A DNA stretch of 10,479 bases, from assembly GCA_003661125.1 (NCBI GenBank), contig QMVO01000038.1, forward strand, positions 1-10,479. The letters run 5' to 3'. The notes below the pieces were generated by a model that made no database searches, was not told where the DNA came from, and saw nothing but the letters and a program-made list of their open reading frames with translations. Every line of letters starts with the position of its first letter. The stretch's first letter is position 1. The stretch comes from Methanosarcinales archaeon (lineage in GTDB: Archaea; Halobacteriota; Syntropharchaeia; Alkanophagales; Methanospirareceae). The translations under genes and the position numbers were made by a program. This document shows, piece by piece, positions 555 through 10,479 of the stretch.

Positions 555-568
555 ATAAATAGAAATTT

Positions 569-641
569 AGCCTGGTAGTGTAGCGGACAATCATTTGAGG
601 CTTTGGACCTCAAGACGGTGGTTCAAATCCACCCCAGGCTA
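569..641 (+). tRNA. tRNA-Gln (anticodon UUG), archaeal-type identity elements (A1:U72, A73), CCA not encoded
   Basis: Folded by hand. Acceptor stem AGCCTGG/CCAGGCT (7 bp). U8 A9 present. D-arm GTG..CAT with A14, G18 and G19. Anticodon stem TGAGG/CCTCA with loop CTTTGGA, so U33 and anticodon TTG. Variable loop AGAC. T-arm GGTGG-TTCAAAT-CCACC. Discriminator A at 641, followed by atc, so no CCA. Confidence 0.8.
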
Positions 642-644
642 ATC

Positions 645-697: not shown

Positions 698-862
698 ATG
701 ACGACTAAAAAAATATCTATTGTTATAGAAAAAGATGAAGACGACGATTTTTTTGTAGCCGAATGTCCATCTCTTCCGGGATGTTATACACAGGGGGAAA
801 CATTGGGTGAAGCTTTGAAAAACATACATGAAGTGATTGAATTGTGTCTTGAAGAAATGTAA
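698..862 (+). CDS. solo HicB-like antitoxin N-domain protein (UPF0150 / RNase-H-like-fold HicB family), 54 aa, no DNA-binding C-domain and no adjacent hicA
   Basis: The ORF is below the length cutoff of the track and was translated by hand: [54 protein letters not shown]. The signature of HicB-family antitoxin N-domains (I.IEKDEDGGYVAE.PDLPGC.TQGDTLEEAL.N..EAIEL.LE) is matched almost position for position. The stop TAA (860-862) lies inside motif copy B. Confidence 0.6.
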
Positions 863-3361: not shown

Positions 3362-4228
3362 ATGGCTGATGCAACAAATTCGTTAGAAGAGTTCTCGAAG
3401 TATGTAGATGCAGAATTGGTAGAACCGTTACGTGCAGTTCTGATAGGCCGTAAAATCGTGCCAGTAACGCCAGAGCATGGACTCGGTGTGTCCGCAGTCG
3501 AATTCCACAAGATAGTGGAGATGGGTGAAGGTGTGGTAACATACAGTTTCTCCGATGCTGGCGAAGACGAAATCAATATTACACCAACCACACTTAAACT
3601 GCCGATACACATAAAAGATTACAGAATAGACCGCAGGCATTACGAATCGTATCGCGAGAAAGGTATAAATATTGATAACAGTACCGCGCTGAGTGCTGCT
3701 TTCGTTGCTGCAAACAAAGAAGATGCGACAATCATTCGTGGCTATGCTGGTGATGGGTCTACATATGATATCAAAGGGCTATATGAAGGTGCCGGCAACA
3801 CATACGCAGGCAGCGATTTTGGTACCGCCGGTAATCCCACGGATGCAGTCGCAGGAGCAATGGATGCATTGGAACAGGACGATGTCCCCGTTTCAAGCTG
3901 CAATCTCATTCTACATCCGACACAGCGAAATGAACTTCGTGCACTTCGGAATAGCTATGGAATACGAGAAGAGCCAGAAGTATTGGAAATGCTGAATGGA
4001 GGGGCAATTTACAGCTCGAAAGCACTCACTGCCGGTACGGGATTGCTCATTCCAACAGTAAATTTGGCAAGACCGTATTTCGACTATTTCCTTGGTGTCG
4101 ATTGGAGGACTGAGCATGGTACAGAAAGCGAGCACCCTGATACAAGCGATTTGCATGGACGTGTATATAGCACAGGCGTATTGAGAATCAAGCATGATGT
4201 AGCGATCTGCACAATCACGGGGATATAA
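3362..4228 (+). CDS. major capsid protein, encapsulin-like (Linocin M18 / family-1 encapsulin shell) HK97 fold
   Basis: 288 aa. Colinear with Thermotoga maritima encapsulin. LIGRKIVPV..HGLGVSAV compares with LYGRKFVDVEGPYGWEYAA. LKLPIHIKDYRIDRRHYESYREKGINIDNSTALSAAFVAANKEDATIIRG compares with [50 protein letters not shown]. The C-terminal NLILHP...YFLGVDWRTEH...RVYSTGVLRI compares with YTLVINT...LILGQDLSIGY...RLFITETFTFQV. The length also matches, and AAAAGGAGGTGA lies upstream. Confidence 0.7.
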   Translation: MADATNSLEEFSKYVDAELVEPLRAVLIGRKIVPVTPEHGLGVSAVEFHKIVEMGEGVVTYSFSDAGEDEINITPTTLKLPIHIKDYRIDRRHYESYREKGINIDNSTALSAAFVAANKEDATIIRGYAGDGSTYDIKGLYEGAGNTYAGSDFGTAGNPTDAVAGAMDALEQDDVPVSSCNLILHPTQRNELRALRNSYGIREEPEVLEMLNGGAIYSSKALTAGTGLLIPTVNLARPYFDYFLGVDWRTEHGTESEHPDTSDLHGRVYSTGVLRIKHDVAICTITGI

Positions 4229-5605: not shown

Positions 5606-6029
5606 ATCTATCTTAGATGGAATCAAGCATATTCTCCAGAATGATGCAGACACAAAAGACGTGATCAAATCCTATTATTATCATCTTCCCGTATCAGGTG
5701 CACGCGACCCTTGCTGCATCCTCGGATATAATATCTCGTTTAATATAGACAAAGAACGTTCTTATCTCAATAGTTCAATACCTGGACGATTCTGGTCTGC
5801 TTCTGTTTCTATTTTACTTTTAGGTAGAGTTTATGAACGTACTCCTTCGCGGTTTGAAGCAATGATAGAAATTCTGGATAAATTACAAGGCGATGCATAT
5901 GAAGCGCTCACGAATGACAAAACACTAAACGGTACAGTCCTCAAGAGTCAACCTGTTTCTATACACAATATCTTCCTCGATGAATACTATGGATATGAGA
6001 TATCTATTGAGATCACAAAATCTGATTAA
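5598..6029 (+). CDS. putative neck / tail-completion protein (position-based), 143 aa
   Basis: The ORF is translationally coupled to the upstream gene. It is the last gene of the + strand neck block before the reverse-strand cassette. I recognise no family. Confidence 0.45.
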   Translation: MIKSILDGIKHILQNDADTKDVIKSYYYHLPVSGARDPCCILGYNISFNIDKERSYLNSSIPGRFWSASVSILLLGRVYERTPSRFEAMIEILDKLQGDAYEALTNDKTLNGTVLKSQPVSIHNIFLDEYYGYEISIEITKSD

Positions 6030-6477: not shown

Positions 6478-7608
6478 TCATTTATTTTCATTTTTTATGG
6501 CAAACTCTTCTGACAAATAACTATATATCTTACTTGCTAATTTTTTATCATATTCTTGTGCAAAATACCGCATACAAGTTCTTTTATCGTGAACAATATC
6601 TAAATTTTCTTTCAAATACTTCTCTTTTATCTCCGCTTTAAATCTTTTCTCAAAAGCTACTTCATTCATTATCTTGCGAATCCTCTCTTCTTGTTGTACT
6701 ATATCACTTTCTTGGAACTCTTCTAAAAGCAACGATTTAATCAAATCAAAAGAAGGATTGTCTGTTTCTTCATAGGCGTTTATCACTGTTATTAATATTG
6801 AATGTTTTGGTATTCTATTGTCTTTCCAGTGCACATCCAAAACCAAATCAGGCTTCGCTTTATATTGTATTGCACTTTCTGAGATGACATACCAAACAGT
6901 GCCTTCTATACCTCTTACGATTCCCTCCGTATCCTGAAATATGTTTTCATTAAGCCATTTTCTTAGTGCTTCGTATTCTTCAATGAATTCTATTTTAGAT
7001 GTAAAATTCTTTAAAAGCTTTGCAGTTCTCAATCCATTCAATTTGAGTTCTGTGGGAGGGACTATTTTCTTAGGGAATACACCGAATAGCGCAGCGCAGT
7101 CAAGTAAAGTATCATACTCTACTAATATCTTATTTCTTTTTCCGTATAGTTCAAAGCTGATGTTACATTTATTCTTTAATATTATCTCAGGTATCTCGGG
7201 ATATGTGTCAAGCATTTCGCTCCACAAACTCCGGAAGTTACCAAATCGGGATTCCTCTAACGTTGGTCGTAGTCGTGTTTTATAACTCACAAATTCATTG
7301 CCTTCTGCATCAAAATAAGTATATCCTAAGATATTTGTCCCATCTAACTTTTCATATACTTCTATCCTGTCTACATTTTCAAAATGAATATAATTACCGT
7401 CCCTATCAAAAGGATATACCATCTTTGGTGTAGCCCATACATATTGAGGACATTCTTTATCATTTACATGGGTGATGTAAAGCATCCCATAGGTTGAATG
7501 TCCATCTCGTCTGATATATCCCTTTAATGTATTATTATTAAAGGTATCTCTCACTTCAAACTCTTCTACATTCTTGGAACTGATATTAAAAGGATATTCA
7601 GTCATCAT
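6478..7608 (-). CDS. ATP-dependent RNA ligase-like covalent nucleotidyltransferase (Rnl2/Rnl3-like), 376 aa, with ~50-aa N-terminal extension and ~120-aa helical C-terminal domain
   Basis: Nucleotidyltransferase motifs occur in the canonical order and spacing. Motif I is VYEKLDGTN with K87 (T4 Rnl2 has EKIHGTN; Rnl3 is the KxDGxN type). Motif III is ISFELYGK with E153, 66 aa after motif I. Motif IV is TEGIVRG with E228. Motif V is QYKAK with K250/K252, 22 aa after motif IV. The reverse-strand SD GAGGAG lies 5 nt before ATGATG. Confidence 0.6.
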   Translation of the reverse strand: MMTEYPFNISSKNVEEFEVRDTFNNNTLKGYIRRDGHSTYGMLYITHVNDKECPQYVWATPKMVYPFDRDGNYIHFENVDRIEVYEKLDGTNILGYTYFDAEGNEFVSYKTRLRPTLEESRFGNFRSLWSEMLDTYPEIPEIILKNKCNISFELYGKRNKILVEYDTLLDCAALFGVFPKKIVPPTELKLNGLRTAKLLKNFTSKIEFIEEYEALRKWLNENIFQDTEGIVRGIEGTVWYVISESAIQYKAKPDLVLDVHWKDNRIPKHSILITVINAYEETDNPSFDLIKSLLLEEFQESDIVQQEERIRKIMNEVAFEKRFKAEIKEKYLKENLDIVHDKRTCMRYFAQEYDKKLASKIYSYLSEEFAIKNENK

Positions 7609-7706: not shown

Positions 7707-7739
7707 ATTTGTAAACGTCCCCTTTTTATTTCTATTCCG
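7707..7739 (+). promoter_or_regulatory. copy C of conserved motif (ATTTGTAAACGTCCCCTTTTTATTTCTATTCCG); candidate promoter for the major tail gene, in the divergent intergenic region shared with the RNA ligase gene
   Basis: The TATA-like CTTTTTATTT lies ~50 nt upstream of ATG 7780. A leadered transcript would carry the SD AAGGAGGAAG. The 21 nt core is identical to copy B. Confidence 0.4.
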
Positions 7740-7779: not shown

Positions 7780-8694
7780 ATGGCAAAAATGCCGATTTCT
7801 GGTGCGAAGGCGATAGAATACGTCGCCGAGGATTCAATAGGGAGTGGTACTTACGGAGTAACACCAGACAATCCAACGATGAAATGGCTCGGATTAGTAA
7901 ATCCATTCACTCCACACATAGCCAAAGGGTACGAAGAAGTACGTTATCTCGGTGCTTACGATGCAACAGATATGTTGCAAAAAATGCGAAATATGAAAGT
8001 GGATGGAGAACTAACCGCATCACTGACTTACAAACCGCAGGATTGGGATTTCATGCAGTATATCACAGGCAGCACTACCGGTCTATCAGACTCTGTCGAT
8101 TCATTAAGCATCGCGCAGTACACAGATGAGAAATGGATATTGTATAAGGGATGTATGCTCACGAGATGGGAACTGACCTTGCCAAAAGAAGGAATTGCAA
8201 CCGTAGATGTGGATATGACAATAGGAGATGTAGCAGACCCGACTGGCACTGATTTCATAGGTACGGGCTCGCATGCATCAGAGAGTACAGATGACCCGTT
8301 CCTGTGGGAAGACATAACAGGACTTAAGATGGATTCTAATGATCCGCCTACTACAGAGATTGCGCATTCTGTCGGCGATCTGACACTCAGCATAACAAAT
8401 GAAGTCGAATTACCGAAAGATATTAGCTCAACGAAATGGACGCGAGCTGAAGGTGCAGTCGTAAAGAAGAGGGACATATCGGTCTCGATGGAATTGACCT
8501 GGGTTGATATTGATTCCTTTTTCACATTAGTGAAAAACGGCACGAAACAAAATTTGCAGTTCACACTCGGTGGTAAGACATTTACTATTAAGGGACTCAT
8601 TCCGCCTGAATACAATCCAGAGATTACACCCGATAACTTTATTGGTGAGACGGTTACATTCCTAATGGACCAGCCAGACTTGACAATAGCGTAG
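7780..8694 (+). CDS. putative major tail protein, 304 aa
   Basis: A strong SD (AAGGAGG) is present. The ORF is located directly upstream of the G/GT chaperone pair and the tape measure gene, the canonical siphovirus order MTP-G-GT-TMP. Its Thr/Asp/Gly-rich composition suggests a beta-rich protein. Confidence 0.5.
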   Translation: MAKMPISGAKAIEYVAEDSIGSGTYGVTPDNPTMKWLGLVNPFTPHIAKGYEEVRYLGAYDATDMLQKMRNMKVDGELTASLTYKPQDWDFMQYITGSTTGLSDSVDSLSIAQYTDEKWILYKGCMLTRWELTLPKEGIATVDVDMTIGDVADPTGTDFIGTGSHASESTDDPFLWEDITGLKMDSNDPPTTEIAHSVGDLTLSITNEVELPKDISSTKWTRAEGAVVKKRDISVSMELTWVDIDSFFTLVKNGTKQNLQFTLGGKTFTIKGLIPPEYNPEITPDNFIGETVTFLMDQPDLTIA

Positions 8695-9229: not shown

Positions 9230-9476
9230 TCAAATCTTTTCTCCCCAAGCCCGCTGGGCAATATGCTGAAGAAATAGCTCAGTGGCTAAAAGGAAAGAGC
9301 ATAAAAGACGACCGCATAATCGAATACACGCTCATGTCTCATTTCGGCTGGTCGGAGAAGACCTTATATGAGACTTCCCTGAATACTATTCAAAATGCAT
9401 TATTTATTTTAGAACGGATTGCAAAGCACGAACAGTTAATTCTTTCCAGATCGCGTAAAAATAAACAGCATTTGTA
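8807..9476 (+). CDS. predicted G-T fusion product made by -1 programmed ribosomal frameshift at AAG AAA AAG (9215-9223), extending to TAA 9474-9476
   Basis: The -1 frame has a stop at 9136-9138 and is open from 9139 to 9476. It overlaps the last ~30 codons of G and continues 83 codons past the G stop. The heptamer G_AAA_AAG lies at the overlap. This G/GT architecture is conserved in tailed viruses. Confidence 0.45.
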
Positions 9477-9500
9477 AACGTTCTATTTTAAACTTTCTAC
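9468..9500 (+). promoter_or_regulatory. copy D of conserved motif (CATTTGTAAACGTTCTATTTTAAACTTTCTAC); candidate promoter for the tape measure gene; TATA-like TATTTTAAAC centred ~28 nt before ATG 9518 (leaderless geometry)
   Basis: It shares TTTGTAAACGTTC with copy A. There is no SD before ATG 9518. The motif contains the TAA stop of the GT extension. Confidence 0.35.
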
Positions 9501-9517: not shown

Positions 9518-10479
9518 ATGCCGGGAAATATTGTGGAGATTATTATAAAAGCAAGAGATTTAGCTTCCTCTGCATTTCGGCAAGTACAAAATCAAATAGC
9601 GACAACTAAAACTATTGGAGTTTCTGTTGCTTCCAAACTTAAGAATGTGGGGAGAGCACTTTATTCTACCGTAAATACATACTTTATTCCTGCAGCTCTC
9701 GCGATTGCAGGAGTTGCATTTGCTATTAAAGGACTTATCGATGCGTTTGGTGATTTTGATATGGCAATGAAAGGTGTGCAAAAGACAACAGGCATGTCAG
9801 AAGAAGAAATCGACGCCCTTGGCGAAGATTTTAAAGAAATGTCTACTCAAATTCCGCTTTCTGCAAAAGAACTCGCTGATATTGGAGCAATTGCCGGTCA
9901 ATTAGGTATTCAAGGTTCTGATAATATTACTACTTTTACCGAGAGTGTAGCAAGAGTTTCAATTGCTCTAGATATGACAGCAGAAGAGGCGGCAACATCA
10001 ATGGCAAAAGTCAGTAATGCTTTTGGGCTACCTGTTACTCAAGCTGATAATTTAGCATCTTCAATTAACACACTCGAAAATACTACTGCAGCAAAAGGCA
10101 GGGATATTATTGCATCTATGACTCGGATGGCAGCATCCGGGGCTCAATTAGGCTTAACTGCTGACGCTGCAGCTGCACTCGCTGCTACTCTCATCGCAAT
10201 GGGAATGCCTGCCGAGCGTGTTGGAACTCGACTCAATACAGCTTTTACACAGATGGCAAAAAATGTTGGGGATATGGCAGCGCAAATGGGGATGTCAGAA
10301 GAGGAATTACGAGCATGGATAGACAGAGATGTAATGGGGGCTCTCAATGCATACATAGAAATGCTGCGCGAAACTCCGAGTGAAATCGATAGAATAACAA
10401 TGGCAAATGAAGTTTTTGGTGCTGTTGGCGGTAAAGCAATTGCATCATTGGCAACAGGTTACGATGATTTACAAACGAA
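9518..10479 (+). CDS. tail tape measure protein, TP901-family type core, N-terminal 320 codons (continues beyond the window)
   Basis: Translated by hand: no stop is reached before the window end. There is an N-terminal hydrophobic helix (YFIPAALAIAGVAFAIKGLIDAF). The characteristic TMP core is present: FKEMSTQIPLSAKELADIGAIAGQLGIQGSDNITTFTESVARVSIALDMTAEEAATSMAKVSNAFGL...GRDIIASMTRMAASGAQLGLTADAAAALAATLIAMGMPAERVGTRLNTAFTQMAK. Confidence 0.85.
   Translation, partial: MPGNIVEIIIKARDLASSAFRQVQNQIATTKTIGVSVASKLKNVGRALYSTVNTYFIPAALAIAGVAFAIKGLIDAFGDFDMAMKGVQKTTGMSEEEIDALGEDFKEMSTQIPLSAKELADIGAIAGQLGIQGSDNITTFTESVARVSIALDMTAEEAATSMAKVSNAFGLPVTQADNLASSINTLENTTAAKGRDIIASMTRMAASGAQLGLTADAAAALAATLIAMGMPAERVGTRLNTAFTQMAKNVGDMAAQMGMSEEELRAWIDRDVMGALNAYIEMLRETPSEIDRITMANEVFGAVGGKAIASLATGYDDLQT

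Follow-up and report, generated by a model that had tools for sequence, protein, structure and literature searches.

A solitary HicB-like core upstream of the head genes of a tailed virus: a candidate anti-HicA decoy

Compact toxin-antitoxin modules of the hicBA type, known as 'Class 2' (Gerdes 2024, PMC10865869), are found in Methanosarcinales and in the ANME-2 group of anaerobic methanotrophic archaea (ANME). They are the closest described systems to the gene which we discuss here, a short open reading frame (ORF) found at positions 698–862 of the + strand in a stretch of DNA of 10,479 nucleotides (nt), hereafter the window. The window holds the structural module of a tailed virus and the gene codes for a HicB-like protein of 54 amino acids (aa). 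At NCBI the sequence belongs to a bin called 'Methanosarcinales archaeon', and the product is already annotated there as a HicB family antitoxin. By host we mean the Methanosarcinales/ANME-2 lineage. The viral gene and the cellular modules have an identity of 70–81% in amino acids and of about 70–79% in nucleotides over strands 1–3 and helix 1. They share the signature EKDED...PGCYTQG and neither has a DNA-binding domain. The viral gene differs by the absence of hicA downstream and by ending after helix 1, with about 25 C-terminal residues gone. It also differs in its surroundings: in place of the host Shine-Dalgarno sequence it has a predicted viral promoter with a very short leader, and it lies in a region of viral head genes.

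Antitoxin homologues without a toxin have been described in phages. The antitoxin mimic found in vibriophage ICP1 (PMC10760071) and, in T4-like phages, the DarG-like AdfA (PMC11825919) are both homologues of a host antitoxin; the action which we propose for the viral HicB is of the same kind, a direct neutralisation of a host toxin which would otherwise abort the infection. These cases are bacterial and have been shown experimentally, whereas the present one is archaeal and a prediction. Another difference lies in the target, as the antiviral role of the HicA RNase has itself only been proposed. Closer in environment type and host group are the antitoxin genes (of vapB, relB and hicB type) reported in cold-seep viruses, including predicted viruses of ANME/Methanosarcinales, for which counter-defence was also proposed (PMC10504277). 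That survey gives only counts; to these we add a conserved position, a protein truncated after helix 1 and an alternation with ribbon-helix-helix (RHH) fusions and with an MqsA N-domain. RHH-HicB fusions, found in viruses related to the one in the window, are the last group to be compared and we will discuss them below.

The HicB core and its cellular relatives

The N-terminus of the viral protein is fixed by an in-frame TGA at 692–694. Its assignment to the HicB family, proposed in the initial annotation, is borne out by Pfam, with HicB_lk_antitox (PF15919, E 1.2e-9, 38.8 bits for a cutoff of 27) and UPF0150 (PF21748, 32.3 bits, cutoff 27.3), and by PHROG 497 'HicB-like' (E 3.7e-12). Sequence matches in the Protein Data Bank (PDB) are TTHA1756 and Burkholderia HicB; a profile search reaches the Burkholderia HicB structures 6g1n/6g26 with E 2.7e-10. 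An AlphaFold model based on 38 homologues has a mean confidence (pLDDT) of 85, with strands at residues 9–13, 18–22 and 30–33 and a helix at 36–53. Among its 18 top Foldseek matches in the PDB, 17 are HicB or HicB/UPF0150-type domains, the exception being 3kwr, whose PDB entry describes a putative RNA-binding protein. Of all matches 6g1c is the best, with a root-mean-square deviation of 1.0 Å and a TMq of 0.80; the HicAB complexes 6g26, 4p78 and 6hpb are also found among the matches. The product is confirmed as a HicB-family toxin-binding core with the order strand-strand-strand-helix.

The canonical HicB fold has one more element, strand-strand-strand-helix-strand (PMC10865869). This fourth strand is absent from the viral protein, which finishes one residue beyond helix 1, so that its description as a textbook N-domain is correct for the strand-strand-strand-helix core and not for the complete fold. 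The residues which are nearly or fully invariant in a broad HicB alignment are all present: E11, K12, D13, E14, D16, G28, C29, T31, Q32, E45 and I47.

It had also been stated that the gene has no hicA partner in the window and that its product lacks a DNA-binding C-domain. The first statement stands: when all six frames of the window are translated, a profile of host HicA finds no match at E≤10, and the gene which follows hicB codes for a ChaB-protease instead. The second one is correct but misleading. There is no further domain in the 54-aa protein, either of the RHH or of the helix-turn-helix (HTH) type, but this is no distinguishing mark of the viral copy, because its nearest cellular homologues lack such a domain too. 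What has really been lost are the last 25 residues or so. In the window a virus carries a toxin-less homologue of an antitoxin of the host lineage.

Homologues of the viral protein form 149 clusters. The 120 clusters listed have identities of 67–81% over at least 83% of the query, and those with a named source come from Methanosarcinales, ANME-2, Ca. Argoarchaeum and Ca. Methanogaster. The closest ones, with identities of 70–81%, are compact cellular HicBs of 79–81 aa from Methanosarcinales/ANME-2. Ten loci were fetched for three of them (P0046, P0034 and P0003): all ten have chromosomal contexts, and in all of them hicB is followed by a 75-aa hicA which overlaps or abuts it. The host HicAs retain the GSH catalytic motif. 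The proposal that the viral gene might act against HicA gains support from these neighbours of its nearest homologues.

The nucleotide similarity between the viral and the host genes extends approximately from the start codon to codon 53 and ends exactly at a repeated motif (copy B, see below). The part which is missing in the virus consists of helix 2 and a strand-like tail, QKEEIVEHLDAIQEFSYHVVSAEI. In a model of the P0046 host monomer it appears as a helix at 57–66, followed by a segment (68–79) with pLDDT below 50. At least 15 additional residues are found in 103 of 119 close cellular homologue clusters. On the other hand, 23 of the top 150 cluster representatives have a C-terminus within 6 residues of the viral end, although some of them may be partial genes; the family had 5,774 representatives at E≤1e-3 in that search. 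Proteins which end after helix 1 are therefore not exclusive to viruses. One such case is locus L020, where a solitary host-type HicB of 54 aa (523–687) has the same end point; the genes immediately downstream of it are those of a type I restriction-modification operon (HsdM, HsdS, Bro-N, HsdR), with no hicA. Its context looks like a defence island.

When the virus is compared with the host, synonymous differences (pS 0.53–1.0) are saturated, while non-synonymous differences are low (pN 0.11–0.13, with dN/dS ≤0.15); host genes compared among themselves have a pN of 0.04–0.10. The capture of the gene is therefore old and its sequence still constrained: it is under purifying selection. A recent capture from the host is ruled out by the saturation of synonymous sites. 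The window sequence is also found, identical, in a 12.5-kb contig of ENA and in a 2.6-kb Logan contig. The three contigs with the hicB gene have 100% nucleotide identity and no polymorphism, so they give no population signal of selection.

The repeated motif and the position upstream of the protease

A 19-nt motif, TGTAAACGTYCCCTTTTTA, is found four times in the window, three times exactly and once in a degenerate form, always on the + strand and intergenic. Shuffled sequences average 0.28 matches, and five were not reached in any of 200 shuffles. We count its spacing from the start of the motif to the start codon. Copy A (TGTAAACGTTCCCTTTTTAGCAA, 648–670, +) starts 50 nt before the hicB ATG and is the predicted hicB promoter. 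Its T-rich box is found about 38–32 nt before the ATG, which leaves a hicB leader of few nucleotides, with no Shine-Dalgarno sequence. Copy B (TGTAAACGTCCCCTTTTTAATTC, 858–880, +) starts 43 nt before the ATG of the protease at 901 and is the predicted promoter of the ChaB-protease and the head operon, at a spacing consistent with a leaderless mRNA. The stop codon of hicB (TAA, 860–862) lies inside it. The positions initially given for copies A and B were accurate, and both copies do flank hicB. However, the motif is not limited to hicB: copy C (7710–7732, +) is found 70 nt before the start of the tail-tube gene at 7780, which is provided with a leader and with GGAGG as its Shine-Dalgarno sequence, and the degenerate copy D (TGTAAACGTTCTATTTTAAACTT, 9473–9495, +) is found 45 nt before an ORF at 9518. 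Copy D holds the stop codon (9475–9477) of an upstream ORF of 47 aa.

Related viruses were found with the ChaB-protease (901–2427) as anchor. A search with the capsid protein found no close relatives in IMG/VR, and with the protease an alignment-based scan yielded three loci only. The motif is present in the related contigs L016 (3934, 9956, 16825 and 20157), L013 (3667, 9958 and 20669), L015 (2226 and 8628), L018 (816 and 5558), L023 (6219) and L025 (846), although the proteases of the relatives which share it are no more than 31–59% identical. It is found 43 nt before portal-like genes (L013, L015 and L016), 43–48 nt before the protease genes of all six contigs (48 nt in L018) and 65–72 nt before tube-like genes (L013, L016 and L018), which carry a Shine-Dalgarno sequence. 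Copy B is orthologous to the motif which precedes the protease in these six contigs. The 3' half of the motif in the relatives is TTTATATA; the 5' half, TGTAAACGTCC, is conserved and non-canonical. Archaeal promoters of leaderless mRNAs are built in this way, with a T/A-rich box about 25–31 nt before an ATG which lacks a Shine-Dalgarno sequence. Judged by its sequence and placement, the repeated motif appears to be the conserved promoter of the structural genes in this group of viruses, and not an insertion scar.

The initial annotation had described hicB as a cassette framed by direct repeats, gained by duplication of the motif or by recombination at it. In that form the cassette finds no support. 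In L013, L015 and L018, too, the gene which precedes the protease has its stop codon within the motif; together with the similar case of copy D, this indicates that the junction of the hicB 3' end with copy B is ancestral and compact, with no insertion scar. As to the gain, copy B is shared with the relatives, but copy A is specific to the virus in the window, with no counterpart in the relatives. The HicB of this virus is of another lineage than the fused viral ones, so that a replacement or recombination event at the hicB position is plausible. The region upstream of copy A resembles the leaders of host hicB genes; since it is AT-rich we have not used it as evidence.

The consensus of the promoter in this virus family is TGTAAACGTYC(C/T)-TTTATATA. 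A different promoter of canonical appearance, (A)AGTAAAC-C-TTTATATAC, precedes the RHH genes (L023 about 5927, L025 about 366). The GTAAAC element is 5–6 nt farther from the TATA box in the structural promoter than in that of the RHH genes, a shift which may mark a class of late promoters that need a viral factor. Scans of the window for bacterial sigma-70 promoters and terminators gave fewer sites than in shuffled sequences, a shortage which is consistent with an archaeal system.

The genes found upstream of the protease promoter vary among the related viruses. L016 (9586–9906) and L025 (439–759) have a 106-aa protein with an N-terminal RHH and a C-terminal HicB-like core; fusions of this kind form 21 protein clusters (P0225–P0245). 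The same architecture is present in L013 and L015, with a degenerate HicB-like part. L018 has two RHH genes. L023 and L024 have an MqsA-like Zn-ribbon of 87 aa (5667–5930 in both; PF15731, 32.4 bits for a cutoff of 30, profile positions 2–70 of 131), followed by an RHH gene of 62 aa. RHH_1 is above the cutoff in L013 and L018. Of MqsA this protein has just the N-domain, which binds MqsR; the HTH is missing and there is no mqsR, so that a second antitoxin family is represented at this position by its toxin-binding domain. No match to the HicA profile was found in the fetched portions (2.8–21.7 kb each) of L013–L019, L023 and L025–L027. From these contents we infer that an accessory slot with antitoxin-like modules immediately precedes the prohead-protease promoter. 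The initial annotation asked whether related viruses lack the gene and have a single copy of the motif in its place. Copy A is indeed missing in them, but a HicB-like domain is found at the same position in L016, L025, L013 and L015.

The RHH-HicB fusions resemble the gene in the window by their position directly upstream of a motif-driven ChaB-protease, by the end of the core after helix 1 and by the absence of hicA nearby. All 21 clusters end right after helix 1, with a mean core identity of 87%. They differ by their N-terminal RHH, which is the reverse of the canonical order of HicB domains, and by their lineage. The core in the window averages 71% identity to the host family and only about 49% to the fused domains, which have their nearest cellular relatives in another HicB subgroup. 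The same place in these viral genomes is therefore taken by two lineages of HicB, each of which stops immediately beyond helix 1. The promoter is also different: the fusions are driven by a canonical promoter, with a B recognition element (BRE) and a TATA box, with a leader and a Shine-Dalgarno sequence; the motif was not found upstream of them.

In the window RHH and HicB are encoded by separate genes, with a 61-aa ORF, a tRNA-Gln and copy A in between. The first ORF (ORF1, 112 aa, 9–347, +) has a divergent RHH segment at residues 44–84 approximately. It has no Pfam match above cutoff, but it is the only ORF of the window matched by a profile of the RHH parts of the relatives (E 1.7e-5), and it matches the L016 fusion in pairwise BLASTP (E 4e-5). 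By these matches ORF1 is the counterpart of the RHH gene or domain which precedes the protease promoter in the relatives. The 61-aa ORF (ORF2, 369–554, +) is a small protein rich in Cys, found between the RHH ORF and hicB, with no match in Pfam, PHROG or PADLOC. The possibility that ORF1 or ORF2 might be MqsA-like Zn-ribbons was also considered; neither has a significant similarity to the L023 protein.

Candidate function of the core and alternatives

The interpretation which we favour, with a probability of about 0.5, is that the orphan HicB core of host type acts as an anti-HicA decoy in a tailed virus of Methanosarcinales/ANME-2 archaea. The gene, which is preceded by its own copy of the structural-gene promoter, would be transcribed together with the head and tail genes during infection, as a near-leaderless mRNA. 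Its product would bind host HicA through the sheet and helix 1 which it retains. As what would be a stable minimal core, it would keep the HicA RNase inactive once the labile HicB of the host is depleted, and in this way the viral mRNAs would be protected from an abortive-infection response. The antitoxin-like modules found in the same slot of the related viruses would fit a shared anti-toxin role.

Several results on other HicB proteins are relevant to this proposal. The N-domain, especially helix 1, contacts HicA and masks its catalytic His (PMC6159526, PMC11594946). In HicB of Streptococcus pneumoniae only the mutations F22A and E47A abolished neutralisation, which was maintained with F80A and T89A in the C-terminal region (PMC6159526, PMC11594946). 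Going by position only, F22 and E47 should fall in strand 2 and helix 1, in the half which the virus has retained; with a constant offset the viral residues T31, Q32 and E45 would be those numbered T33, Q34 and E47 in S. pneumoniae. A HicA from ANME-1 is toxic in Escherichia coli and is neutralised by non-cognate HicBs to a degree which is proportional to their similarity; ANME-1 and ANME-2 are the groups richest in hic genes (PMC13385816). There is also an experimental precedent, against DarTG, for orphan antitoxins as a phage counter-defence (PMC11825919).

Other observations weigh against a decoy. Strand 4 of the S. pneumoniae protein contributes to the HicA interface and to dimerisation of the N-domain (PMC6159526), so that the affinity of the tail-less viral protein could be impaired. 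The viral protein departs from nearly invariant host residues at three places: a Pro is changed to Ser before strand 1, Asp37 is changed to Gly, and there is a one-residue insertion of Asp. The fused HicB-like domains of L013 and L015 do not have the conserved PGC-TQG signature, so that binding to HicA is not a necessary property of a domain at that position. Expression from a structural-gene promoter is probably late, unlike that of a typical early anti-defence gene. An antiviral role of HicAB has so far only been proposed (PMC10865869, PMC11594946). Finally, the host is defined here as a lineage, rather than as an identified species with its own HicA, and about 12.5 kb of the viral genome are available, of which the search for hicA covers the window.

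A broader interpretation can be offered tentatively. The region upstream of the protease promoter might be an 'anti-toxin slot', in which toxin-binding domains from various host antitoxin families are placed next to an RHH regulator, stripped of the rest of the cellular protein. Its contents would be the host-type HicB core in the window, the RHH-fused HicB of another lineage in L016 and L025, and the MqsA Zn-ribbon in L023 and L024. If this possibility were true, methane-cycling archaea would have type II toxin-antitoxin RNases in the first line of their antiviral defence, and nothing more than the strand-strand-strand-helix core would be needed to neutralise HicA.

A different role for the slot would be regulatory. 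The HicB-like core could be a subunit or accessory domain of the viral RHH regulator, which would control the structural promoter or the timing of late expression, with no relation to HicA. What does not vary among the relatives, immediately before the protease promoter, is the presence of an RHH gene or domain, which in L016, L025, L013 and L015 forms one polypeptide with the HicB-like domain. In L013 and L015 the HicB-like domain has been retained in spite of its divergence from the signature which contacts HicA. The conserved upstream half of the promoter motif could serve as an operator, and canonical HicB proteins are themselves repressors (PMC11594946). However, the core in the window is a separate gene of host type, its identity being 70–81% with cellular HicBs that are linked to hicA and about 49% with the fused domains. 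Furthermore L018, L023 and L024 manage with RHH and no HicB; the addition in L023 of the N-domain of an unrelated antitoxin, MqsA, fits better with a role directed to toxins. We know of no DNA-binding function for the HicB N-domain. We consider a regulatory role unlikely.

The gene could also be what is left, without function, of a hicBA locus which was captured from the host and cut short when the promoter motif came to lie next to it, but this appears quite improbable. The protein is shorter than about 85% of its close cellular family and has the substitutions at nearly invariant positions mentioned above. The viral gene has no Shine-Dalgarno sequence, while host hicB genes have GGTGA, and the similarly truncated solitary hicB of L020 could be a parallel case. 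Its base composition is also low in GC, 34.5% (25% in third codon positions), compared with 40.5% for the window and 42–48% for the structural genes; it is similar in this respect to a ligase-like gene in the same window, with 32.9%. Against such a decay, the frame is intact, pN is only 0.11–0.13 although pS is saturated, all family-invariant residues are kept and the fold is predicted with confidence. The gene has its own exact copy of the promoter, at the spacing used for leaderless genes of the virus. Moreover an independent viral HicB lineage, with its 21 clusters, ends at the same structural point, from which it can be argued that the form terminated after helix 1 is a unit under selection.

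The weakest alternative, an ordinary toxin-antitoxin pair with its cognate hicA in another part of a genome of probably 45–55 kb, for example for provirus maintenance or for the exclusion of other viruses, has precedents in the hicAB pairs of prophages and archaeal viruses such as SNJ2 (orf5/orf6, PMC10123103) and Adephagia (PMC11594946), but it is very improbable, given that hicA overlaps or abuts hicB in every cellular locus checked, that the prohead protease comes next in the window, and that the fetched portions of the related viruses have no hicA either.

Other features of the region and significance of the finding

The viral setting proposed for the gene is upheld by the ORFs of the window identified with Pfam and PHROG. 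The first gene of the head operon (901–2427, +) codes for a 508-aa protein with an N-terminal ChaB domain (72.5 bits in Pfam) followed by a part similar to a prohead protease or scaffold; its homologues include HK97-type prohead proteases. The same fusion is common to several relatives (L016, L018 and L023). An HK97-type capsid protein follows at 3362–4228 (Linocin_M18, 60 bits; major head protein in PHROG), and the tail-tube gene is found at 7780–8694. The long ORF which starts at 9518 has 1062 aa in the ENA contig NODE_6547 (L001). The end of this contig (1–69) is an Illumina Nextera adapter (CAAGCAGAAGACGGCATACGAGAT...AGATGTGTATAAGAGACAG), an assembly artefact.

Upstream of hicB, at 568–642 (+), there is a tRNA-Gln with anticodon UUG, detected by ARAGORN and by Rfam (59.9 bits). 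This tRNA is absent from L013, L015, L016, L018, L019 and L023, and it is also absent near the cellular hicBA loci. A joint capture with hicB has no support, since neither those loci nor the related viruses have a tRNA nearby. It might supply codons or replace a cleaved host tRNA.

Within the structural module, on the opposite strand (6478–7608, -), there is a gene for a 376-aa protein with a KxDG-type motif (EKLDGTN) and a weak Pfam match to RNA_ligase (E 0.0022, below cutoff). It has no meaningful sequence match in the PDB and no match in PHROG or PADLOC. It is possible that its product ligates RNA or DNA; such an enzyme would suit a virus equipped to deal with damaged RNA. The defence models of PADLOC gave nothing for the small ORFs of the window or for this ligase-like gene.

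The related contigs have features of their own. At L016:15496–16521, L013:18496–19722 and L027:1–587 there are, taken together, a reverse transcriptase (RVT_1) among the tail genes, which may belong to a diversity-generating retroelement, an IS605 OrfB/Cas12f-like TnpB gene and a protein with an ADP-ribosyl exotoxin domain. In L016 (9133–9376) the counterpart of a 62-aa ORF of L017 (5210–5398) is interrupted by an in-frame TGA (…GSWHVK*REHNP…), which may correspond to a pseudogene or to a recoding event.

The kind of gene which we have described is already known and NCBI annotates it as HicB. What is new is its context in an archaeal virus, the recurrent truncation after helix 1 and an accessory position in which toxin-binding domains of HicB type and of MqsA type alternate. 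The 54-aa protein may be likened in its action to the orphan antitoxins of phages. It is HicB by its sequence and core fold, but it is neither a complete canonical fold nor part of a hicBA module. If its ability to neutralise HicA were determined, the result would define the minimal neutralising unit. The conserved promoter motif provides a handle on the transcription units and on leaderless expression in an uncultured family of archaeal viruses. HicAB modules are especially abundant in the uncultured ANME archaea, where their antiviral role has been proposed and is unproven. A constrained, minimal and toxin-less viral HicB, together with the antitoxin-derived domains of its relatives, gives indirect evidence, from the side of the virus, that such toxins matter in infection.

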